In this document: positions 6,313 to 53,672 of the stretch, piece by piece
Position numbering within the stretch: the stretch's first letter is position 1
How the letters are laid out: every line of letters starts with the position of its first letter
From: an uncultured Candidatus Saccharibacteria bacterium
Lineage (GTDB): Bacteria > Patescibacteriota > Minisyncoccia > Phycocordibacterales > UBA918
DNA: 64,000 bases
NCBI GenBank assembly: GCA_964608605.1
Contig: CAZSOS010000002.1
Span: 36,601 to 100,600 of the forward strand
Reading direction: 5' to 3'
Made by a program: the position numbers and the translations under genes
Notes under the pieces: model-generated
What the model saw: the letters and a program-made list of their open reading frames with translations, nothing else
What the model was told of the DNA's origin: nothing
The model's database searches: none

Positions 6313-7008
6313 CTATTGCCGGCCGAACAGCATAGTGCCGTCGTCTTCAAGCTCCAGGACCAGCGCCCCGGAACCGGCGAAGAAGAAGCTCTTCACCCCT
6401 TCCAAGGCCGAGGTGAACTCGTGTTCTTGCGAACCTTCGCAATACATCATGGTCGAGGCTAGCGGACCAAAGGCCAACGCGTGATCGTTGACCTCGTAGC
6501 CGCCGAAGAAGCCGTTGCAGTCGGTCGTGCCGTTCACCCGACTCTCATCCGCGTCGAAGGTGATGGTGAAGGCGTCGGTCCGGCGCGGCTCGGTCACGAC
6601 CTCACCGATAGTGGTGGCTTGCCAAACCCAAGTGCCGGCCAACTTCAGGGCGTCGGTCAGGCCGCCGACGTTGCCGGAGAATATCTGCCGGCCATCTTTA
6701 GAAATGGTGACCGCCTCCCCCCGATTCCACAGCTCCAGACCCAGATCATCGTTGACGTAACGGGCTCCGGAAGCGGCGATGGCCAGGTCGAAGGCCAGGC
6801 CATCGTAGCCCAAGCCGTTCAAGACCGCGTGATCATCGCCTTTAAATTCCACCCTCACCGCCTCCCCCGTCTCCGGGCTGGTAAAGGTTATAGCTTCTTC
6901 CGCCATATTGGATCCCCAGGTTCCAGGTCCTTTCAGATAAAGGGCCAAGGATATCAGGGCGACCACTATGACCGCCACCAACAAGATCCATGATAGTTTT
7001 TTATCCAT
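6313..7008 (-). CDS. membrane-anchored MliC-like plus META/HslJ-domain protein
   Basis: N-terminal TM segment MDKKLSWILLVAVIVVALISLAL. The C-terminal part carries the META-domain pattern TTDCNGFFGGY...LAFGPLASTMMYC. The start was chosen at MDKK. Confidence 0.55.
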   Translation of the reverse strand: MDKKLSWILLVAVIVVALISLALYLKGPGTWGSNMAEEAITFTSPETGEAVRVEFKGDDHAVLNGLGYDGLAFDLAIAASGARYVNDDLGLELWNRGEAVTISKDGRQIFSGNVGGLTDALKLAGTWVWQATTIGEVVTEPRRTDAFTITFDADESRVNGTTDCNGFFGGYEVNDHALAFGPLASTMMYCEGSQEHEFTSALEGVKSFFFAGSGALVLELEDDGTMLFGRQ

Positions 7009-7924: not shown

Positions 7925-9385
<1,461 letters not shown>

Positions 9386-13144: not shown

Positions 13145-13699
13145 TCAGCGGCTGAACTTCTCTAAAAACACCTCCACTTCCTTGAAGAGCGCCTCGGTAT
13201 CGTTATCGTTATAGATAGTATGATCGGCCAGCTTCATGACGGCGGCGATATTCTGCTGGTGTGGCTCGGTACCGTGCATTTCCGTCTCCTCCTGCTCCAC
13301 GAACTTCGAAAAGGTCACGTGGTCCAAGGCGCTACCGCGTCCATGGATACGGTCGTAGCGCAGCTTTTGGTCGGCATCGACGGCTAAGAGGAGCGCGGAG
13401 TCGTGCTCGCGCAACGCCTTCACTTCCCCCAAGGTGCGCAAGGACTCGATGATCACGTTACCGCCCTGTTCCTGAGCTTTTTTGAACAGCTCCCGGAACA
13501 CGAAATCGGCACCGTGCTTGGCCCGCAGTCCATTGGCGAAGACGGCCATGGAGTCGCGATCTATCGGCAACCCGGCTTGCTCCATCAGCTCCTGGAATAA
13601 CGCGCGGGCGGAGAGGTGATGAAAACCTTTGGTCTCGACCAAGTACTTCACCACGGTTCCTTTTCCGGCTCCTAACGTGCCCGTTATTCCAATGATCAT
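13145..13699 (-). CDS. P-loop nucleoside-monophosphate kinase family protein (adenylate-kinase/CoaE-like)
   Basis: The Walker A motif GTLGAGKGT resembles the AK signature GxPGxGKGT. A conserved Arg lies in VDADQKLRYDRIHGRG. Confidence 0.45.
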   Translation of the reverse strand: MIIGITGTLGAGKGTVVKYLVETKGFHHLSARALFQELMEQAGLPIDRDSMAVFANGLRAKHGADFVFRELFKKAQEQGGNVIIESLRTLGEVKALREHDSALLLAVDADQKLRYDRIHGRGSALDHVTFSKFVEQEETEMHGTEPHQQNIAAVMKLADHTIYNDNDTEALFKEVEVFLEKFSR

Positions 13700-13704
13700 T
13701 TGCT

Positions 13705-14655
13705 TTAACTTTTTATCGGCTTATGTTTCTGATATTTCTCGATCACCACTAGCATCGGCGCCGCCAAAAGGATGGAAGAGTAGGTACCGGCGACCATGCC
13801 GACGGTCAGGGTGATGGCCAGCTCCTTGGTGGATTCCGGACCCAAGAAGGCCAGAGCGAACAGCATGAAGAGCACAGTCACCGAGGTGTTGACCGATCGG
13901 GTGATGGTCTGCGATAGGCTCCGCCAGACCACGTCGCCGAAAGGTTCGCGGACGCGCTTCTCCTCGTTTAGCTTCAGGTTCTCGCGGATGCGGTCAAAGA
14001 TGACGATGGTGTCGTTAATGGAGATGCCGAGAATGGTCAGCAGGGCCACGATGAATAGCGTTCCCACCTCGGAGCCATAGGCGTGGCCCAGATAGGCGTA
14101 GAGGCCGATCGGAATGATGACGTCGTGCGCCAACGTAACGATAGCTACCAGACCGTACTTCCAGGAAGGCACGTTGCCGCTCTCGGCGCTGCCGCCCACC
14201 CCGCGGAAGGCGATGGCGATATAGATGATGGTCGACAGGATGACCAGCGTGATGGCCCACCAAGCTTTGCGCACCAGCTCGCTGCCGATCGATGGGCCGA
14301 TCGAAGTGTAGCGGGTCTCCTCCAGAGGTCCGAAGGCGGTCAAGGCCTCAAGCAGGCCGGTCTTCTCTTCCGGGGAGAGCACCCGCTGCCGGAGGATGTA
14401 GTCAGAGTCGCCGGTAGGCTGCACCATCACCTCGCCGATGTCGAGCGCCGCCACGCGGGATTCGACCTCGCCGATGGACGGGCGCTCGGTCTCATAATGG
14501 ACCTGCAACAGCGAGCCCCCGGCCAGCTCCACGTTGGGCTTGAGACCCCACATGAACACGGTCAATAGCGACAGCGCCACCAGGACCACCGGAAGGATGA
14601 AGAAATGATTTTGATATTTCTGAAGTTTCATCCCGTTAGAAATTTTAGTTTGCAT
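13705..14655 (-). CDS. secF: protein translocase subunit SecF
   Basis: Six-TM SecF pattern, with a periplasmic domain after TM1 and the C-terminal TM bundle. Confidence 0.8.
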   Translation of the reverse strand: MQTKISNGMKLQKYQNHFFILPVVLVALSLLTVFMWGLKPNVELAGGSLLQVHYETERPSIGEVESRVAALDIGEVMVQPTGDSDYILRQRVLSPEEKTGLLEALTAFGPLEETRYTSIGPSIGSELVRKAWWAITLVILSTIIYIAIAFRGVGGSAESGNVPSWKYGLVAIVTLAHDVIIPIGLYAYLGHAYGSEVGTLFIVALLTILGISINDTIVIFDRIRENLKLNEEKRVREPFGDVVWRSLSQTITRSVNTSVTVLFMLFALAFLGPESTKELAITLTVGMVAGTYSSILLAAPMLVVIEKYQKHKPIKS

Positions 14656-24309: not shown

Positions 24310-24430
24310 TTGAAGTTGGCGCCTACCTACTCTGCCCCAATTAAGGAGTACCATCGGCGATGGAGGGCTTAACTGCCGTGTTCGGAATGAGAACGGGTGT
24401 ACCCCCTCCGCTAAAGCACCAACTTCAAAA
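24310..24430 (-). rRNA. rrf: 5S ribosomal RNA
   Basis: The reverse complement contains CCGTTCTCATTCCGAACACGGCAGTTAAGC...GCCGATGGTACT...GGGCAGAGTAGGTAGGCGCC, with helix I pairing TTGAAGTTGGTGC/GCGCCAACTTCAA. Confidence 0.8.
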
Positions 24431-24504: not shown

Positions 24505-24580
24505 TGGCTGGGGCGGAAGGAGTCGAACCAACACCTGAGGGATAGTACCCTCCGTTCTAACCGTTAAACTAAGCCCCAGC
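24505..24580 (-). tRNA. tRNA-like gene with a non-canonical anticodon loop (apparently 6 nt) and U-U pairs in the T-stem; possible pseudo-tRNA
   Basis: Hand fold gives a good acceptor stem, a D-arm and the T-loop TTCGACT, but the anticodon stem GAGGG/CCCTC encloses only 6 nt (TACTAT). The isotype cannot be assigned by hand. Confidence 0.35.
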
Positions 24581-24602
24581 AAAAGAACTTGAAACAAATT
24601 AT

Positions 24603-24680
24603 TGGTCGGAGCAACGGGATTTGAACCCGTGACCCCTGGCTACCCGAGCCTAGTGCGCTACCAGGCTGCGCTACACTCCG
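24603..24680 (-). tRNA. tRNA-Pro-like (D-arm identical to tRNA-Pro, loop CTCGGGT reading CGG), anticodon stem irregular
   Basis: Acceptor CGGAGTG/TGCTCCG plus A and CCA, D-arm GCGC-AGCCTGGTA-GCGC, T-arm ACGGG-TTCAAAT-CCCGT. The anticodon region CTAGG-CTCGGGT-AGCCA does not pair canonically. Confidence 0.5.
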
Positions 24681-24996
24681 ACCTAGAGTAGGTGATATTT
24701 TTATCTTCCTACTCAAAACCAGTTCCCCGCTGGTTTATTGTTCGCAGTCTAATTAAGACCGCTTCAGAATATCCAAGCTTGTCCCGTACCAAGACGAATG
24801 TCTTTGGTACGGGATATTTCGCACATCTTCTTACCAGGTTCACACTTCACCCAAAATCGTACAGCGATATCCAGCATTCCTTGCAGGAAATACGTCCGAT
24901 TAGTACTTCTCGGCTCAACGTATTACTACGCTTACACCTAAAGCCTATCAACCTAATCATCTCTTAGGGGACTTCATGATACCTAATCTCAGAGTT

Positions 24997-25029
<33 letters not shown>

Positions 25030-25171
25030 ATTCCCGACATAGCTACTGGGCAGTGCCGCTGGCGCGACAGCCCACAGACCAGAGGTCAGTTCATCCCGGT
25101 CCTCTCGTACTAGGGACAAATCTCTTCAAGTATCGACGCCTGCAGTAGATAGGAGACCAACCTGTCTCACG

Positions 25172-25530
25172 CAATAGTAGCTGATTAGCTTTTAGCACTT
25201 AGCTATTAGCCATTCAACGCCATCATTACTGACGGGATCGGACTGTAACTTAGCCGGTTCTCGGCTTCCGATATTCAGTCTCTACAAGTGCACGAGTAAA
25301 CTTTTTTGCCAGTTTTACTCTGCTTCTCTCGGTATTGCCCGCAACATTACTTGTTAGGGTTTTACCGATTTTAATCGGATCATATCACTGATATTCCTAT
25401 CAGTGACCGCCGTGTAGGTTGGTTCTTTTCTTTGTTCATAAACGAAAAGTAAAAACAATTCTTCGAAGGGGTTTAGACTGCTGAATTTCCCTTAGCCAAG
25501 AGCTAAGTGCTAATAACTAAGAGCTATTCA
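25172..25530 (-). mobile_element. 359-nt ORF-less insertion in 23S between GGGTTTAGACCGT and CGTGAGACAGG (E. coli ~2593, the I-CreI/I-CeuI homing site); group I intron candidate with TTAGC-repeat inverted ends
   Basis: Exon sequence is continuous across the insertion. The insertion ends are TTAGC-rich inverted repeats at 25178-25210 and 25497-25527. Confidence 0.55.
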
Positions 25531-26187
25531 ACGGTCTAAACCCAGCTCGCGTATCTTTTTAATTGGCGAACAGCCAAACCCTTGGGACCTGCTCCAGCCC
25601 CAGGATAAGATGAGCCGACATCGAGGTGCCGAACCGTGCCGTCGCTTTGGACGCTTGGGCACGACTAGCCTGTTATCCCCAGGGTAACTTTTATCGGGTA
25701 ATCTCCGGCGGCATCTAACGCCAACCATCGGTTCACTATGCTCCGCTTTCGCGTCTGTTCGGCATCTACGCCTTACAGTCAAGCCAACTTTTGCCATTGC
25801 ACTATCGGCACGGTTTCCATTCGCGCCTAGTTGACCTTGAGACCCCTCCGTTACATTTTGGGAGGGTAGCGCCCCACTAAAACTGCCTGCCACTCACTGT
25901 CCCCGCCGCGTTTGACGCGACGGGTTAGAAACTGCCCAATTTAAGATAGGTATTTCACTGACGACTCCACGGTACCCGAAAGCCCGCTTCAAAGTCTCCC
26001 TACTATGCTACGCATAAATCAAACAGCCCCAATAAGAAGCTACAGTAAAGCTCCTGGGGTCTCTTCGTCTAACTGCAGGTAGGCTGCATCTTCACAGCCA
26101 TTGTATTTTCACCGAGCAGGTCCTTGAGACAGTTTCCCAGTCGTTACGCCATTCGTGCACGTCGGAACTTACCCGACAAGGAATTGC

Positions 26188-26420
26188 GCTCTATAATTCC
26201 TTCTTTAATGTAGATACCCGCGTATCTACGTACACAATAGGACTCTATCTTCACCCTCTTATATACTAGTCAGACTAGTATAAAGGTGGGGTGTGCAACA
26301 TTTGGTCTCTTGTTGGTTGCAATTGGAAATACTAATGATTACTCACTAGTAAGGTAACTATGGCTCGGGCTGTTTAACTCTACAATCGTTCTAATCCGTA
26401 GAGCACACTTCCGAAGAAAC
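26188..26420 (-). mobile_element. ~233-nt ORF-less insertion in 23S between GGTAGAGCGC and (G)CAATTCCTTGTCGGG (E. coli ~1917 intron site); carries an internal REP-like palindrome
   Basis: Flanking exon sequence aligns to AACTATAACGGTCCTAAGGTAGCG|AAATTCCTTGTCGGG. Palindrome TATACTAGTCAGACTAGTATA lies at 26262-26282. A 7-nt direct repeat AGAGCGC sits at the junctions. Confidence 0.5.
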
Positions 26421-26647
26421 GCGCTCTACCTTAGAACGATTATAGTTATCGCTGACATTGACGGGGGCTTACACAGTCCAGCACCCAGCACCACTCTCAC
26501 AAACTTTGTTTGTGAAGATGGTGCTGGGCACCGCCCGTGCTTAACCTTCCCGCATTGGTCAGGCGTCACCCTCTATACATGGACTTACGTCTTCGCAGAG
26601 AGCTGTGTTTTTGTTAAACAGTCGCCAGGAAATCTTTCGCTGCGGCC

Positions 26648-26836
26648 GAGCGCATCACGCTACGCGCGATGACTAAATTCAAAATTGAAAAGTCAAAATG
26701 CAAAATTACAATGCAAAGTTCAAAATTTCGCTACGAACTCTATGAGTACGTGACGTAATTTTTACTTTTTATTTGTACTTTTGATTTTTGAGATTTTCCT
26801 TTTCAATTTAGCATCACATGCAATGTGATGCGCTCG
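26648..26836 (-). repeat. AT-rich IVS-like expansion in the 23S helix-63 region (copy A of a duplicated AT-rich element)
   Basis: Inserted between the complementary arms GAGCGCATCAC and GTGATGCGCTC. Contains a 47-nt segment (26689-26735) identical to 27405-27451. Confidence 0.6.
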
Positions 26837-27374
26837 GCAGGCCTTATCCCGAAGTTACGGCCGCTTTTTTGCCGAGTTCCTTAAGGACCCCTCACTCGTT
26901 CGCCTTGGTCTTCTCGACCCTACCACCTGTGTCGGTTTGCGGTACGGAACCACTATGCTTAACCCAAACGAAGTTTTTCTCGGAAGCGTGCTCCTTACAT
27001 TTCCTTGGCCGTAGCCGCAGATTCAGACTCTACTCGGATGATATCGCGCGGATTTGCCTACGCGACGTCCTCATAGCTCCAGCACCAATCCAATAAGATG
27101 CTGTAAGTACAACGCTCCGTCCCTCCATAGGAACATAGCAGTGTGCAGGAATATTAACCTGCTCTCCATCGCCTCCGGCGTTCGCCATCGGCTTAGGACC
27201 GACTAACCCTTCGCTGATCACCATCGCGAAGGAAACCTCGGTATTTCGGCGGACGGGGTTCTCACCCGTCTTGCGGTTACTTGTGCCGGCATTCTCACTT
27301 CGCATCGCTCCAGGTAGGGTCTCCCCCACCATTCATCGCAGATACGAACGCTCTCCTACCACTCAACGCACCTC

Positions 27375-27525
27375 ACAAAAGTTCGTTGCTAAAATAAAAA
27401 TGTAAAAGTCAAAATGCAAAATTACAATGCAAAGTTCAAAATTTCGCTACGTGCTATCCTGCGCGTTGCGTGATTTTGATTTTTGAGATTTCAATTTTCA
27501 ATTTAGCATCTCACCTCTGTGAGAT
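27375..27525 (-). repeat. AT-rich IVS-like expansion in 23S helix 45 (copy B)
   Basis: Inserted in the helix-45 stem CAGCGCATCTCAC/GTGAGGTGCGTTG, the site of the classical enterobacterial and Coxiella IVS. Shares the 47-nt repeat and the GATTTTTGAGATTT motif with copy A. Confidence 0.6.
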
Positions 27526-27615
27526 GCGCTGAATCCGCAGTTTCGGTAATATGCTTGAGCCCCGATCATCTTCGGCGCAAGGACTCTCGACCAGTGAGCT
27601 GTTACGCTTTCTTTA

Positions 27616-27650
<35 letters not shown>

Positions 27651-28210
27651 TAGAGAATCCTCACCTCCTCCAGATGCACTGAGCATATATTTAGGGACCT
27701 TAACTGGCGATCTGGGCTGTTCCCCTTTTGACCAATGGAGCTTCTCCCCCATAGTCTAACTGCCGAGCTATAATCTCTGGTATTCGGAGTTTGATAGGAA
27801 CAACGAGCTTTCGCCCTGTTTGTTCCTTCCAGTGCTCTACCCCCAGAGGGACCACTCGACGCCAACCCAAAAGCTGTTTCGGAGAGAACCAGCTATTACG
27901 GAAATCGATTAGCTTTTCACTCCTTACCACAAGTCATCCGATGGTTTTGTACGGCCAACCGGTTCGGGCCTCCACGAGGTTTTACCCTCGCTTCACCCTG
28001 CTCATGGCAAGCTCTTCCCGCTTCGGGTCGTACCCCAACTCCATATTCGCGCTATTCACGCTCGCTTTCACTGCGCCTCCGCGGGTTTTCCGCTTAGACA
28101 AGGAATTAAGGTACACTCGCCGGCTCATTCTTCAATAGGCACGCCGCAACCCCGAAAGGCCGCGACTCCTTGTAAGTGTATGGTTTCAGATCTATTTCAC
28201 TCCCCTCTCC

Positions 28211-28256
<46 letters not shown>

Positions 28257-28554
28257 TTAAAAGATATTTAGCCTTACCAGTTAGTGCTGGCAGATTCATC
28301 CGAGCTATTCATGTCTCGAACTACTCAGGAACAAGATCAACGGAGTCATATACATTTCAAATACGGGACTATTACCCACTGGGGTCGAGCTTCCCAACTC
28401 GTTCTTCTATATATATGTTTTGTAACTCCGCGCAACTAAATGCGGACCTTGCCCTACAACCCCGTAAATATTGCTATCAACGGTTTGGGCTATTCCCGTT
28501 TCGCTCGCCGCTACTAAGGGAATCGCGAGAACCTTCTTCCTGGTTTCAATGGCC

Positions 28555-28878
28555 CCAGCACCACTTTTTGGTTTCAATGGATTTGAGACGACTCACATCT
28601 TTTCAATAATTCTTGTTTGCCGCGACCATGTTGTTTAAGTCGCTGCTCACGCTTGTCCGCATCGTCTTTAGAACGGTATGCTTCTGCGTATATCAAGATC
28701 CATTTCCCTGATGTTCTGTGCGTAGACTTATTGCGTGAGCTATTATGCTCGCTAAGTCGTCGCCTCAAATCATTGGTTCTTCCAATGTAGATATCTCTAG
28801 TATCACTGTGTTGTATCACATAGACACTGTACATAATCCACATTGTATCAAAACCAAAAAGTGGTGCTGGGTAGTTTT
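28555..28878 (-). mobile_element. IVS-like element in 23S domain I (E. coli ~210) bounded by 21-bp perfect inverted repeats CCCAGCACCACTTTTTGGTTT; encodes a GIY-YIG protein
   Basis: Inverted repeats at 28555-28575 and 28858-28878. The flanking rRNA aligns to GAAAAGAAA...GATTCCC..AGTAGCGGCGAGCGAA. Confidence 0.65.
28574..28843 (-). CDS. GIY-YIG nuclease superfamily protein (89 aa) encoded inside the 23S rRNA gene
   Basis: YSVYVIQHSDTRDIYIGRTNDLRRRLSEHN carries the GIY...YIG motifs with conserved Arg and Glu. Confidence 0.6.
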   Translation of the reverse strand: MWIMYSVYVIQHSDTRDIYIGRTNDLRRRLSEHNSSRNKSTHRTSGKWILIYAEAYRSKDDADKREQRLKQHGRGKQELLKRCESSQIH

Positions 28879-29150
28879 AACCAGAAAGAAAGTTCCGTAT
28901 ATTGCTTTCTTTTCCTCTCGGTACTGAGATGTTTCACTTCCCGAGGTGTGCTCTCGCATAACGCGAGTTTCCGACGTAATCGGAAGGGTTTCCCCATTCG
29001 GAGATCTCCGGATCGAAGGTTGATTGTCACCTCCCCGAAGCTTATCGCAGACATTCTACGTCCTTCATCGCTCTTTTAAGCCAAGGCATCCACCATACAC
29101 CCTTACATTCCTGCAAGGAATGCTGTACACCGCTGTACGATTCTGATCAT

Positions 29151-29659: not shown

Positions 29660-30283
29660 TTACCGTTTGATCTCATTCCGGATATCCAGACGATCCACGA
29701 TGATCTGATGCGGGTAGTCGAATACGTCCCGGGTCAACTTGTCGTACATGCCGACCCGGTACTTGAGCTCCTCGGAAGTGAAGACGGCATAGCGGATCTC
29801 GATGCCGCACTCCGCCTCCATGGATCTGATGGCATTCTCGATCTTCGATTCAAAGACCTTCTTGGTCGCCAAAAGCACGTCGAGTCTCTGCTCGAACTCG
29901 CGCAGAAAGACGCCGGCGATGCAGACGAAGTCGATGGGCCCGGCCTTGCGCAGGTGCTTCAAAAGCGTCTTGCCGTTTATCGGCGCCGTGTCAAAGAGGA
30001 AGGTCTGCAGCGCCTGGAGCTCATCGAAGTCCTTGTTGAGCATGTACGCCTGTACCCGCGAACGCTTGGAGCGGCCCTCGAGCTGCTGATACACCTGCTT
30101 GCTGCGGATGATGTCGGCGCGTTCGAGCGCGTTCATCTCGGTGCGGGCGGTGCGCCTGACCAGCTTGGCGCGACGACTAATATCGTCGAAGGTGAACTCC
30201 TTGGACGGATTAAAGAGAAAAAAGCGAAGCAATTTCACTCGAGCCGGACTGCCAAACAGGATCGATAGCGGATCAGAAGCCAT
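29660..30283 (-). CDS. hypothetical protein (207 aa), possible N-terminal winged-helix domain
   Basis: Clean ORF with its own terminator. No diagnostic motif recognised. Confidence 0.4.
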   Translation of the reverse strand: MASDPLSILFGSPARVKLLRFFLFNPSKEFTFDDISRRAKLVRRTARTEMNALERADIIRSKQVYQQLEGRSKRSRVQAYMLNKDFDELQALQTFLFDTAPINGKTLLKHLRKAGPIDFVCIAGVFLREFEQRLDVLLATKKVFESKIENAIRSMEAECGIEIRYAVFTSEELKYRVGMYDKLTRDVFDYPHQIIVDRLDIRNEIKR

Positions 30284-30786: not shown

Positions 30787-30898
30787 ATTTGTGAATTTTT
30801 AATTTCCAATTTTTAATTTTGAATCAATGTTGAATTAACCAATTTTGAAACATTCACTCATTCGAATTTGATTCGAAATTCGTAATTCAAAATTCGAC

Positions 30899-32074: not shown

Positions 32075-32118
32075 TATACCAGTCAGACTAGTATATTTAT
32101 ACTAGTCTGACTGGTATT
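32075..32118. repeat. REP-like palindrome doublet (TATACCAGTCAGACTAGTATA then TATACTAGTCTGACTGGTATA) at the 3' end of the RAYT gene
   Basis: Two adjacent 21-bp palindromes in opposite polarity, a BIME-like arrangement. Confidence 0.8.
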
Positions 32119-32806
32119 ATTCTAAAACCTTCTCTCCTTGCACCCATTTTCCTCCCAAAATCACGTCCTTTGAATAATCTTTAAAAGATTGTGGGGTGAA
32201 GATATTGAATAATAAATTGTTATTATTCAAAATCGGAGATCCTTTCCTGACACCCGAGTAATCGCCCAAACTGGAGAAATTATAATCTTTGGCCCAACTC
32301 CAAGCTTTTTCAAAATCTTCTATAGCCGATCTCAATCCTCCATCCGGGTAAAGTTCGAATGTGTTCTTCACCATGACATAAGCGGCTACGTATCTTAAAT
32401 ACTCATCTTCAACGATCGTTTTAGATCGGAACGCTCCTTGGAACAGACTCCCCCGCTCTTCATATTTTTCATTCGAGTGATTGGTCATACTCTGGCCCAA
32501 CCTTTGCATAAAGAGGCTCACACCACCTTCGGATATCTCCTGAATCAATAAATGAAAGTGGTTAGGCATCAATGTGTACCCTAAAACCTCTACCAGAGGT
32601 TCCCTGTCGGGCCAACTCGACGGACGACTGAATACATGACGATGATCTTCATAAATCCAGTTTTTACTGAAGTGCTTGTCATTCAAAAGAAACAGCATCC
32701 TCAAAAAGCGCCACCGGTCACTTTCGTCACGAACTATGTTAAGTCCTCGTGCGCCTCGTTTGACAATGTGCAAGTATGAACCGACCGAATATGGTTCCAC
32801 CCTCAT
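32117..32806 (-). CDS. REP-associated tyrosine transposase (RAYT) / IS200-like HuH-Y1 transposase
   Basis: The HuH motif in LGYTLMPNHFHLLIQE and a catalytic-Tyr region (EYLRYVAAYVMVKN) fit the Y1 transposase fold. The gene is flanked on both sides by REP-like palindromes. Confidence 0.7.
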   Translation of the reverse strand: MRVEPYSVGSYLHIVKRGARGLNIVRDESDRWRFLRMLFLLNDKHFSKNWIYEDHRHVFSRPSSWPDREPLVEVLGYTLMPNHFHLLIQEISEGGVSLFMQRLGQSMTNHSNEKYEERGSLFQGAFRSKTIVEDEYLRYVAAYVMVKNTFELYPDGGLRSAIEDFEKAWSWAKDYNFSSLGDYSGVRKGSPILNNNNLLFNIFTPQSFKDYSKDVILGGKWVQGEKVLE

Positions 32807-42938: not shown

Positions 42939-43145
42939 CTAATGGCTGACGTACGGCATCAGGGCCATAAAGCGCGCGCGCTTGATGGCTTTGGCCAGAT
43001 CGCGTTGAGCGCTGGCCTTGAAGCCGGTGCGCTTGCGAGACAGGATGCGAGCGTGAGGATTCACCTGAGCGCCAAGCTTGGTGATGTCCTTGTAGTCTAT
43101 GTGGTTTTGTGTTGAATCTTTCCGTTCAGTGTTTTTGTTTTCGTT
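42939..43145 (-). CDS. rpsR: 30S ribosomal protein S18
   Basis: YKDITKLGAQVNPHARILSRKRTGFKASAQRDLAKAIKRARFMALMPYV is the S18 signature. The start was chosen at MNENKN; the longer ORF start at 43211 lies in an AT-rich repeat. Confidence 0.8.
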   Translation of the reverse strand, partial: NENKNTERKDSTQNHIDYKDITKLGAQVNPHARILSRKRTGFKASAQRDLAKAIKRARFMALMPYVSH

Positions 43146-43283
43146 CATATATTGGTTATTGGTATCGGCTACTCGCAAATTTTGAATTACTAATTTTGAA
43201 TTTTGATTCAATTTTTAATGTTTAAATTTTGAAACATTAGCTAATTCAACATTGATTCGAAATTTGAAATTCATCATTCGAAA

Positions 43284-43730
43284 TTAGAAGGGTATATCAT
43301 CGGGATTTATTTCTTCTTCAGGGTAGTCAGGTAGCTTAGGCGCGTTCGGAGTGTTGGCGGCATTGGAAGCGGAAACGGTATTGTCTCCGCCACCAGTACC
43401 CCGGCCGCCGTCGGCGCCGAACTGGAAGTTGTCAGCCACGATCTCGGTGCGATAGCGCTTCACGCCATCCTGCTCCCAGGAACGGGTCTGCATGCGGCCC
43501 TCGATGTACACTGGCCGGCCCTTCTTGAGCCACTGCCCCATGACGTCGGCCAATTTGCCGAAAGCCACGACATCGTGGAATTCGGTCTGCTCCTGTTTCT
43601 TGCCGTCCTTATCGGTATAGGTGCGGTTGGTGGCGACAGCGAACGAACAGACCGCTTGGCCGCTCGGAAGCGCTCTCTTCTCGGGATCACGGGTCAGGTT
43701 GCCGTAGATGATGGCCTTGTTGATGTACAT
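43284..43730 (-). CDS. ssb: single-stranded DNA-binding protein
   Basis: OB-fold core, a Gly-rich linker and the acidic C-terminal tip DDIPF. Confidence 0.85.
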   Translation of the reverse strand: MYINKAIIYGNLTRDPEKRALPSGQAVCSFAVATNRTYTDKDGKKQEQTEFHDVVAFGKLADVMGQWLKKGRPVYIEGRMQTRSWEQDGVKRYRTEIVADNFQFGADGGRGTGGGDNTVSASNAANTPNAPKLPDYPEEEINPDDIPF

Positions 43731-53000: not shown

Positions 53001-53047
53001 CGTCAAATTGTAAAATTTAAATCTCAAAATGTAAAATGACATTGGCG

Positions 53048-53079
53048 GCAATTTCCCTTCGGGAAATTGCCGCCATCTT
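53048..53079 (-). terminator. terminator hairpin (GGCGGCAATTTCCC-TTC-GGGAAATTGCCGCC) after the recO-like gene
   Basis: Perfect 14-bp stem embedded in an AT-rich element. Confidence 0.6.
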
Positions 53080-53105
53080 TCATTTTAAGATTCGACCTTT
53101 AACTT

Positions 53106-53672
53106 TTACAGGTGGCTGGCCTGCTTGGCCTTATCGATCGATACCAGAGCTTCGGGAGGCAGGGATGGCAAGGTCCACCACTCGGGATCCGCCAGATAGG
53201 CCGAGAATCTCTGCGGTGAAGCGATATAGCCCAGACGGTCGAGGAAGCGCAGCGAGAATACCGAGAGAAAGTCGCTACTTGAAAGTCCTTCCTCGGAAGA
53301 CATCGTGAGTGCCGTCTTCACGTCATCGAACACCGCTTCGTGCGCCACTTCCCCATGGACGAATTGCCGCACCAGCTTCACGATGACGCTGACGCGGTGG
53401 CGGGCTTCCTTGGTATCGCAGGCCGAGAAGAAGTTCCGCTCTCCCTCGGCGCTGCCGATCTTCCAGCCGCCCTTCCCCTTGATGAGAGACACCCGGATGA
53501 AGGAAAAATCCTGGAGCGCGAAGCGCTGCCGCGAACGCTCCTCGCGCACGCTCTTGGCAGAGGCCCACAACATCCCCGCCTCCCGCGTGAAAAGCAAGAA
53601 GGATTTGTCGGAAGTGTTATTCGCCCGCGAGCCGCAGACGATCGCCTCGGTGGTATAGGTTTTATAGGACAC
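53106..53672 (-). CDS. recO: putative DNA repair protein RecO (short form)
   Basis: N-terminal OB-fold-like region (AIVCGSR...SFLLFTREAGMLWASAKSVREERSRQRFALQDFSFIRVSL) resembling RecO. Weak. Confidence 0.4.
   Translation of the reverse strand: MSYKTYTTEAIVCGSRANNTSDKSFLLFTREAGMLWASAKSVREERSRQRFALQDFSFIRVSLIKGKGGWKIGSAEGERNFFSACDTKEARHRVSVIVKLVRQFVHGEVAHEAVFDDVKTALTMSSEEGLSSSDFLSVFSLRFLDRLGYIASPQRFSAYLADPEWWTLPSLPPEALVSIDKAKQASHL

Follow-up and report, generated by a model that had tools for sequence, protein, structure and literature searches.

The classical intervening sequences (IVSs) of bacterial 23S rRNA genes, as found in Salmonella, Leptospira, Coxiella and Campylobacter, lie at the tips of peripheral helices, with helix 45 (H45) as a canonical site. 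They have terminal inverted repeats that form a long stem and a GC content below that of the host, are sporadic among relatives, and are associated with an intervening-sequence protein (IVP, also S23p; PF05635), a four-helix bundle that is related to the Avd protein of diversity-generating retroelements. The origin of rRNA IVSs and the function of their PF05635 protein have been a question since the early 1990s. Here we describe two inserts in a 23S rRNA gene on contig CAZSOS010000002.1 (a 64-kb stretch, hereafter the window) that resemble classical IVSs in all these respects, and that both contain a copy of the same AT-rich hairpin element of ~120–140 nt. Unlike the classical cases, one element occupies two helices of one gene, and the arms of its family are near-identical at many non-rRNA sites of other genomes, including protein-coding genes. 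Helices 9, 25 and 45 are the IVS sites commonly cited (PMC4990558), and the second helix here, helix 63 (H63), is not one of them.

That IVSs are remnants of transposition, or mobile elements with an open reading frame (ORF) for mobility, are hypotheses still cited as untested (PMC4990558). The H45 IVS of Coxiella has a 28-bp inverted-repeat stem and is excised by RNase III, and tandem heptamers lie immediately upstream of its S23p (IVP) gene's start codon; in Salmonella, Leptospira and Coxiella the 23S rRNA is functional in fragments after IVS removal (PMC4990558). For the Candidate Phyla Radiation (CPR), a survey by Tsurumaki et al. 2024 (PMC11270868) reports inserts in 82% of 348 23S genes, IVP ORFs within rRNA genes, and short non-intron inserts at known IVS sites. 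The gene studied here is like those described in that survey in its CPR host and its many 23S inserts. Among them are group-I-like ones at positions 1931 and 2593, a non-intron insert that holds a GIY-YIG ORF, and, at known IVS sites, inserts of <200 nt that have neither an ORF nor the features of an intron. A search of the survey's text found neither families common to insertion sites or to non-rRNA loci nor heptad arms flanking IVP genes. In the papers searched we found no description of two helices of one gene that hold the same IVS element, of an IVS at H63, of IVS arms that recur at many sites outside rRNA and even in coding sequence, or of an arm that encodes the conserved N-terminus of IVP.

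Our preferred reading, which we consider probable, is that the two copies are ORF-less derivatives of IVP-carrying hairpin elements, similar to miniature inverted-repeat transposable elements (MITEs), and that they are nested in pre-existing IVSs at the tips of H45 and H63.

A repeated hairpin at two helix tips

The 23S rRNA gene (24879–29116, minus strand) is the only one within the window and matches the Rfam model RF02541 over its full length (2293 bits). With 4238 nt compared to the 2925 positions of the model, it has at least five large inserts when mapped against E. coli rrlH. Two of these displace the tip loop of a peripheral helix and leave the base of the helix intact, as revealed by comparison with relatives whose sites are empty, from which the ends of the inserts were also set. 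The H45 insert (27373–27521, minus strand; 149 nt) takes the place of the tip tetraloop at model position 1218 (~E. coli 1174), in the loop of hairpin 1206–1227. The H63 insert (26657–26824, minus strand; 168 nt) takes the place of the tip loop at model position ~1764 (~E. coli 1710–1750), in the loop of a 12-bp consensus hairpin at ~1752–1777 that cmscan reads as GCCGAGCGCAUCAC[168]GAUGCGCUCGGC. The cmscan positions thus agree with the two helices that were named in a preliminary description of this DNA. Neither insert matches an Rfam intron at the gathering threshold. Folded in the rRNA sense, each is a single long and simple hairpin (H45, −70.7 kcal/mol, z = −8.9; H63, −85.2 kcal/mol, z = −10.2), with complementary termini, an extended stem and a duplex of >20 bp. 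The opposite strands fold about equally well, giving no pointer to which strand is selected.

The element itself spans 26673–26811 (copy A; CTAAATT...CAATTTAG; 27% GC) and 27389–27506 (copy B; CTAAAAT...CAATTTAG; 30% GC), both on the plus strand, that is, in the sense of the IVP-gene stub described below and antisense to the rRNA. The strings in the preliminary description were partly reverse complements, the 23S gene being on the minus strand. Both copies are detected by a profile of the family arm (nhmmer E = 3e-13 and 1.6e-12, respectively). The 47 nt reported as identical at 26689–26735 and 27405–27451 are so without a mismatch, occur nowhere else in the window, and had 0 matches in 100 shuffles. 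A blastn alignment extends the identical block to 48 nt (26688–26735 and 27404–27451, plus strand), and the repeat is longer than had been described, with one part of 63 nt (D1, 94% identity; 26673–26735 and 27389–27451) and another of 40 nt (D2, 90% identity; 26779–26818 and 27474–27513). D1 and D2 are mutually complementary (I2, 84% over 37 nt), therefore the repeated unit is a two-armed hairpin, which has the same orientation at both 23S sites. Its terminal inverted repeats (CTAAATT.../...AATTTAG) have arms of ~40–60 nt, and the arms, ~50 nt each, are made of heptad units (AAAxxCA). The string GATTTTTGAGATTT occurs in the window at 26783 and 27478 only. The loops of the two copies, 43 nt in A and 22 nt in B, are unrelated, and copy B is without 20 nt of one arm. 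Copies A and B are each other's closest relatives and have unique bases in common beyond the family consensus, in agreement with the claim that one element is present in two helices. The contrast in GC content noted earlier holds for the AT-rich elements, but the gene around them is not 60% GC: its rRNA core is 52%, the gene including inserts 48%, and the whole window 55%.

In most tested features, both inserts are classical bacterial-type 23S IVSs, and by analogy with these it is probably RNase III that removes them from the precursor. The hairpins would be transcribed within the pre-23S rRNA, RNase III would cut the basal duplexes of >20 bp, and the hairpins would be discarded and degraded, leaving a mature 23S rRNA in pieces that would be held together in the ribosome and remain functional. 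Alternatively, the hairpins could be kept in the mature ribosome as expansion segments, like ES27L, which in eukaryotes is located at H63; both tips are peripheral, and nothing in the sequence forces cleavage. We consider this improbable, as basal duplexes of >20 bp are typical RNase III substrates, and presence or absence among close relatives speaks against a structural role. Brown et al. 2015 are also said to have found that CPR rRNA inserts are not retained in transcripts. Classical H45 IVSs, moreover, are excised (PMC4990558).

Relatives of the locus were chosen by synteny (rplJ-rplL-207aa-23S-tRNA-5S-VWA-FtsW). Their 23S genes were complete or spanned both tips in four loci (L062, L064, L070, L073) and were partial but reached H45 in two (L072, L074); three more (L066, L069, L071) cover the 5' end of the gene only, including the site of the GIY-YIG insert described below, and L068 covers the first 124 nt only. 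H45 is empty in L070, L072, L073 and L074, where it reads GGATT..CTTTC-TTCG-GAAAG..GTGG (GGATTTGTACTTTC-TTCG-GAAAGTATAAGTGG in L070), and H63 is also empty in L070 (CCTGCCTTTGCACC-TTCG-GGTGTTAAAGGC). The other tips hold unrelated inserts. That at H63 in L073 is ~307 nt with a 70-aa sense ORF (6717–6929); L062 has ~301 nt at H45 and ~308 nt at H63, the latter with a 64-aa sense ORF (13568–13762); and L064 has ~326 nt at H45, with an 88-aa sense ORF (L065 12740–13006), and ~113 nt at H63. No Pfam family was matched by these small ORFs, and the arm profile had no match in ~150 kb of the relatives' DNA.

The bases of the inserts are related among these genomes. At H45, a basal stem (CACAGAGG/CCTCTGTG) is common to the window and its relatives. 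The RNA 5' side of this frame in the window (27507–27521, minus strand) is CUCACAGAGGUGAGAUG, with CACAGAGG common to the H45 inserts of L062 and L064, and the RNA 3' side (27373–27388, minus strand) is CAACGAACUUUUGUGA, partly homologous to the relatives' CCUCUGUGAAGUG. The H45 inserts of L062 and L064 start ..CACTTCACAGAGG and end CCTCTGTGAAGTG.., and the window has ..CATCTCACAGAGG and ..TTTTGTGAGGTG.. there. At H63, the RNA 5' side (26812–26824, minus strand) is part of a local hairpin (CAUCACAUUGCAUGUGAUG) that is also found in L064 without the AT-rich element, and the RNA 3' side (26657–26672, minus strand), the UCAUCGCGCGUAGCGUGAUG region, is common to L064 as well; the window and L064 have the same two small flanking hairpins (CATCACATTGCATGTGATG; CATC..GCGTAGCGTGATG), but the hairpin that these enclose is not the same. 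It had been stated that each copy sits at the tip of a helix whose flanking rRNA arms stay complementary. The position at the tip was confirmed, but not all of the arm sequence is native helix: part of it is a basal stem that belongs to an older intervening sequence and that relatives also have.

Tips that are empty or hold unrelated cargo in relatives identify H45 and H63 as insertion hot spots varying among relatives, rather than ancient, slowly diverging inherited expansion segments. The presence of other cargo in similar basal stems suggests that the element is nested in, or took over the interior of, pre-existing IVSs. The older IVS frames would persist while their cargo turns over, and the AT-rich hairpin would be a newcomer at both tips, having landed in, or displaced the cargo of, what was there. 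One rRNA operon is usual in CPR bacteria, and in a single-copy rRNA gene insertions would survive only at harmless places, namely existing IVSs at helix tips; tolerance of extra sequence at these places only would explain why one element is found in two helices.

The preliminary description had named homologous but diverged expansions at both sites in related taxa as the sign of an ancient expansion, and the relatives' inserts turned out to be unrelated inside or missing. In some relatives both sites are indeed occupied and the basal stems are related, but an origin as vertically inherited ancient expansion segments that were homogenised within the gene is very hard to reconcile with the four relatives with empty sites, the unrelated interiors, the recurrence of the arm at dozens of sites outside rRNA in other genomes, and elements of 27–30% GC in a genome of 55% GC, and we give it hardly any weight.

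A dispersed hairpin family and the intervening-sequence protein

Searches with the core of the element, for which the preliminary description had suggested related genomes, revealed a family in Patescibacteria genomes and metagenome loci. A core 25-mer was found in two other species among 185,579 GTDB species-representative genomes, both of them Patescibacteria metagenome-assembled genomes, and a core 21-mer in 58 metagenome loci, of which eight are unrelated coding sequences (chance matches) and ~50 are family members. No match to the 21-mer was found in viral contigs. The ~50 family loci are conserved on both sides of the 21-mer, over ~50 nt of heptad units, with 45 distinct arms and the consensus AAtTcAAAAttcAAAAaTCAAAATGCAAAATTACAATGCAAAATTcAAAAtT. 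In most loci a complementary T-rich arm follows 5–60 nt downstream, giving hairpins of 90–135 nt with variable loops that are often intergenic. The heptad arms have several possible pairing registers and vary by indels, and the element is AT-rich throughout, on host contigs of 33%–51% GC.

Family members are also found in coding regions, in either orientation. A single arm lies in frame within Pfam alignments in L042 (PolX thumb domain), L022 (family-2 glycosyltransferase) and L043 (TsaE). These in-frame copies belong to family members of other genomes, and none was seen in the window. A single arm is probably in frame in a prolyl-tRNA synthetase (ProRS) too (the loci listed are L042, L022/L050, L043, L048, L015 and L040), and in L040 the arm provides the start codon and the N-terminus of a putative secreted protein.

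Within the window, the arm profile detected three sites, the two 23S copies and a weak one at 53004–53110 (no strand assigned; nhmmer E = 0.034), which is intergenic and non-rRNA. Its AT-rich heptad arms enclose a core hairpin that is GC-rich and perfect, the whole folds to −48.9 kcal/mol (z = −7.6), and it is probably a third, diverged copy belonging to this hairpin family. There are thus two copies plus one diverged in these 64 kb, and ~50 in other genomes. The mobility proposed in the preliminary description is partly supported, by a dispersed family with non-rRNA sites in many Patescibacteria genomes and by empty tips in close relatives, but the helices were not naive targets.

The family includes loci with IVP genes, a link that the preliminary description did not make. 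An ORF starting in the motif in L002 encodes a PF05635 protein (23S_rRNA_IVP; E = 7.5e-21), and in five cases (L018, L030, L085 and two in L075) the left and the right heptad arm exactly bracket an IVP gene. Four of these five arm-flanked genes belong to the IVP subfamily of the window, and one L075 gene belongs to another subfamily. The start codon is within the left arm in L018, L030 and L085, and the stop codon is within the right arm in L030. In full-length members the start codon and the first 9–10 IVP codons are inside the left arm, and in the four genes of the window's IVP subfamily the conserved N-terminus (MQN[HY]N[SA]KFKS) is arm-encoded. The window element has its ends in common with the IVP-carrying elements. 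The layout of the full-length members, with an inverted-repeat stem and heptamers at the IVP start, is like that of the Coxiella H45 IVS. The subfamily has 2350 database relatives at E < 1e-5; among the best 120 of these 2350, ~100 start with MQN[HY]N[SA]KFKS or a close variant, and the named matches are Roizmanbacteria, Amesbacteria and unclassified Patescibacteria. Two look-ups of identical IVP proteins, made with regard to mobility, gave one genomic context each. The two IVP genes of L075 (698–1057 and 2501–2863) are 1.4 kb apart and have AAATAAC-type and AAAGTCA-type inverted arms.

The window copies contain the beginning of such a gene. Read on the plus strand, the 48-mer gives K-V-K-M-Q-N-Y-N-A-K-F-K, in which ATGCAAAATTACAATGCAAAGTTCAAA encodes MQNYNAKFK. 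With IVP P0121 as the tblastn query, both copies match residues 6–26 and nothing beyond (copy A with 81% identity, E = 1.5e-5), the 48-nt block of copy B matching the N-terminal 20 aa, and no intact IVP gene was found by tblastn in the 64-kb window. The copies thus keep the first 13–20 IVP codons only, antisense to the rRNA, and the 10 nt that follow the stub are identical in both (TTTCGCTACG). As they match the N-terminus of IVP only, with no intact IVP gene in the window, the copies appear to be ORF-less relatives of IVP-carrying hairpin elements. The common 10 nt after the stub point to one already ORF-less ancestor in the lineage, from which both would have arisen via intragenomic transposition or ectopic conversion.

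Two full-length IVP-encoding IVSs, one in H45 and one in H63, could instead have decayed in place, each to a stub. The IVP 5' stub in both copies would fit such a history, the IVP ORF of Coxiella is reportedly in reductive evolution (PMC4990558), and IVP ORFs occur in CPR rRNA inserts (PMC11270868). However, a common breakpoint followed by the same 10 nt is not expected from independent deletions, the stub runs antisense to the rRNA, and no IVP gene was found at H45 or H63 in any relative examined, making decay in place unlikely.

The left arm is conserved even in copies without an ORF, and in copy A it overlaps a sigma-70-like TTGAAA-N16-TACAAT (plus strand, 26685–26712; 10/12 positions). This might point to a cis element with a function, for example a small RNA or a promoter for antisense transcription, rather than to selfish DNA. 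Promoter-like matches are not in excess, however (2 found versus 1.4 expected in shuffles), the −35 box of copy B is weaker, promoter spacers are not normally identical across genomes, and the family members in coding regions lie in either orientation; we find such a function highly implausible.

A wider proposal, to which we attach limited confidence, is that IVP genes with inverted heptad arms constitute a mobile hairpin family of Patescibacteria whose ORF-less derivatives have come to lie in rRNA tips, intergenic DNA and protein loops. Classical IVSs may then be its rRNA-resident subset, and IVP a factor for mobility, maintenance or arm binding. If true, a mobile family of IVP hairpins would answer the 1993 question of what IVSs and their ORF are. 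The full-length members with an IVP gene already link classical rRNA IVSs to a dispersed, apparently mobile repeat family. The family gives a concrete set of sequences for work on mobility, on how IVP may recognise the arms and on processing by RNase III, and part of the 'uncharacterised short insertions' described as common in CPR 23S genes (PMC11270868) gains an identity. Even if the link with IVP is incidental, the locus cleanly illustrates how IVS cargo turns over at a pair of helix tips in a single-copy rRNA gene.

Proposed movement of the hairpin and likeness to other repeats

Several points weigh against our preferred reading. None of the ~50 other family members lies in rRNA, as determined with Rfam and by blastn with the 23S and 16S genes of the window and E. 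coli 23S, so the rRNA location is unusual for the hairpin subfamily. Descent could have run from IVP elements to hairpins through deletion, or IVP genes may have been captured by arms that were there before. IVP is not a known transposase, and we know of no enzyme that moves such hairpins. Relative to the rRNA, the IVP stub lies in antisense, whereas the ORF of the Coxiella IVS is in the sense direction. When the flanks were inspected for direct repeats, no target-site duplication was found at either copy: ..GATGA is followed by CTAAA...TTTAG and then CATCAC.. at one, and ..CGTTG by CTAAA...TTTAG and then CATCTC.. at the other. Finally, the identity between the copies is uneven, with a perfect 48 nt beside 15 nt with 4 mismatches and loops that are unrelated, a pattern that conversion or a constraint in cis explains no less well than simple duplication does.

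The last two points bear on the route of the second copy. The element may have entered one helix only, with the second copy made by ectopic gene conversion between two pre-existing IVS stems, a route that we regard as possible without favouring it. A perfect 48-nt tract amid diverged arm sequence and unrelated loops would be in line with conversion, as would the lack of a target-site duplication. On the RNA 5' side the two copies also remain similar beyond the element, in the flanking sequence (AGCGCAUCNCA..UGNGAUGC followed by UAAAUUG); this flank is ancestral in H63, because L064 has the same, and in H45 the relatives are without the local hairpin. On the other hand, the family is dispersed elsewhere, hence some transfer mechanism exists, and the loops and the outer arm differ, which a single whole-element conversion would not yield. 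Conversion concerns the route of the second copy only and is compatible with ORF-less derivatives of IVP-carrying elements nested in older IVSs.

The preliminary description had called the element MITE-like. This is apt for its inverted repeats, but with no target-site duplication seen and no transposase found for it, 'MITE' remains an analogy. Like MITEs and Rickettsia palindromic elements (RPEs), the element is short, ORF-less, AT-rich and dispersed, has inverted-repeat arms, and has longer gene-carrying relatives; unlike them, it is without a visible target-site duplication, and the gene of its long form, IVP, is not a known transposase. Family members elsewhere are also like RPEs in having in-frame copies in real protein genes (PolX, GT2, TsaE), but the copies of this family in coding regions are single arms, not whole palindromes, and the copy number per genome is apparently low. 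Repetitive extragenic palindromic (REP) elements, which are associated with the Y1 transposases of the RAYT (REP-associated tyrosine transposase) or IS200-like type, are similarly hairpin repeats without target-site duplications, but REPs are 20–40 nt, GC-rich and numerous. TIGR-Tas arrays were considered and rejected, as the window has single hairpins and no tandem arrays.

A Y1 transposase gene is located 5 kb away from the hairpins (32117–32806, minus strand; 229 aa; PF01797 (Y1_Tnp), E = 6.5e-7; HFHLLI motif). It is syntenic in L064, L071 and L074, and is therefore more likely domesticated or RAYT-like than an active insertion sequence (IS); because these relatives are without the element, nothing ties the gene to the hairpins. 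The transposons reported in 23S genes of Nostoc PCC 7120 and Deinococcus radiodurans (PMC2672173) are like the element in having inverted repeats and further genomic copies. They differ in being 1–1.5-kb IS with a transposase in one of several rRNA operons, whereas the window hairpins are ~130 nt and ORF-less and lie in what is apparently the only 23S gene.

The 23S rRNA gene and its neighbourhood

The 5S rRNA gene is located at 24314–24423, and the 16S rRNA gene (7925–9384) is unlinked to the 23S gene, ~15 kb off. Between 23S and 5S, ARAGORN predicted two tRNA genes (24505–24680), a tRNA-Pro(GGG) and an odd Ser call with the anticodon ACT; the tRNA-Pro is kept at this position in relatives (L062, L064, L073). 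The protein encoded directly upstream of the 23S gene (29660–30283) shares 75–80% identity with its best named matches, from Candidatus Kaiserbacteria, Paceibacterota and Nomurabacteria, and up to 92% identity with metagenome proteins without a name. These matches point to the host as a Kaiserbacteria-like member of the Patescibacteria (CPR). An origin in cyanobacteria, which the heptamer repeats and the inserts at 1931 and 2593 had brought to mind, was rejected in view of the core's matches in Patescibacteria genomes and of the Kaiserbacteria/Paceibacteria matches to the neighbouring protein.

The 23S gene has further inserts. One of ~330 nt (28554–28881), in the 5' domain at model position ~228, is bounded by a perfect 21-nt inverted repeat (28554–74 and 28851–71) and contains an ORF in the rRNA sense (28574–28843, minus strand) for an 89-aa GIY-YIG protein (PF01541, E = 1e-18). 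It is missing in eight relatives (L062, L064, L066, L069, L070, L072–L074), and L071 has another insert at the site. Two ORF-less inserts (26191–26427 and 25172–25530) are at E. coli 1931 and 2593, known sites of group I introns in CPR 23S genes, and have sub-threshold matches to RF00028 (E = 1.2e-3 and 1e-5, respectively). In the 3' half of the L064/L065 23S gene, a LAGLIDADG ORF lies beside an extra stretch of ~800 nt without a counterpart in the window. Near E. coli 1870, the window has an extra hairpin (26484–26528; CCCAGCACCA...TGGTGCTGGG) where relatives have a short tetraloop hairpin. Its stem has an 11-mer in common with the inverted repeat of the GIY-YIG insert, which may be meaningless, as ~2 such pairs are expected by chance per 4.2 kb.

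Outside the 23S gene, two AT-rich elements (30787–30898 and 43144–43301) are alike and rich in AATTTTGAA-type motifs; their similarity to the AT-rich element of the 23S gene is not significant. The first occupies the rplJ–rplL spacer, which is 112 nt here compared to 20–37 nt in most relatives and 73 nt in L073, and the second has a good fold on the plus strand only (z = −3.9).

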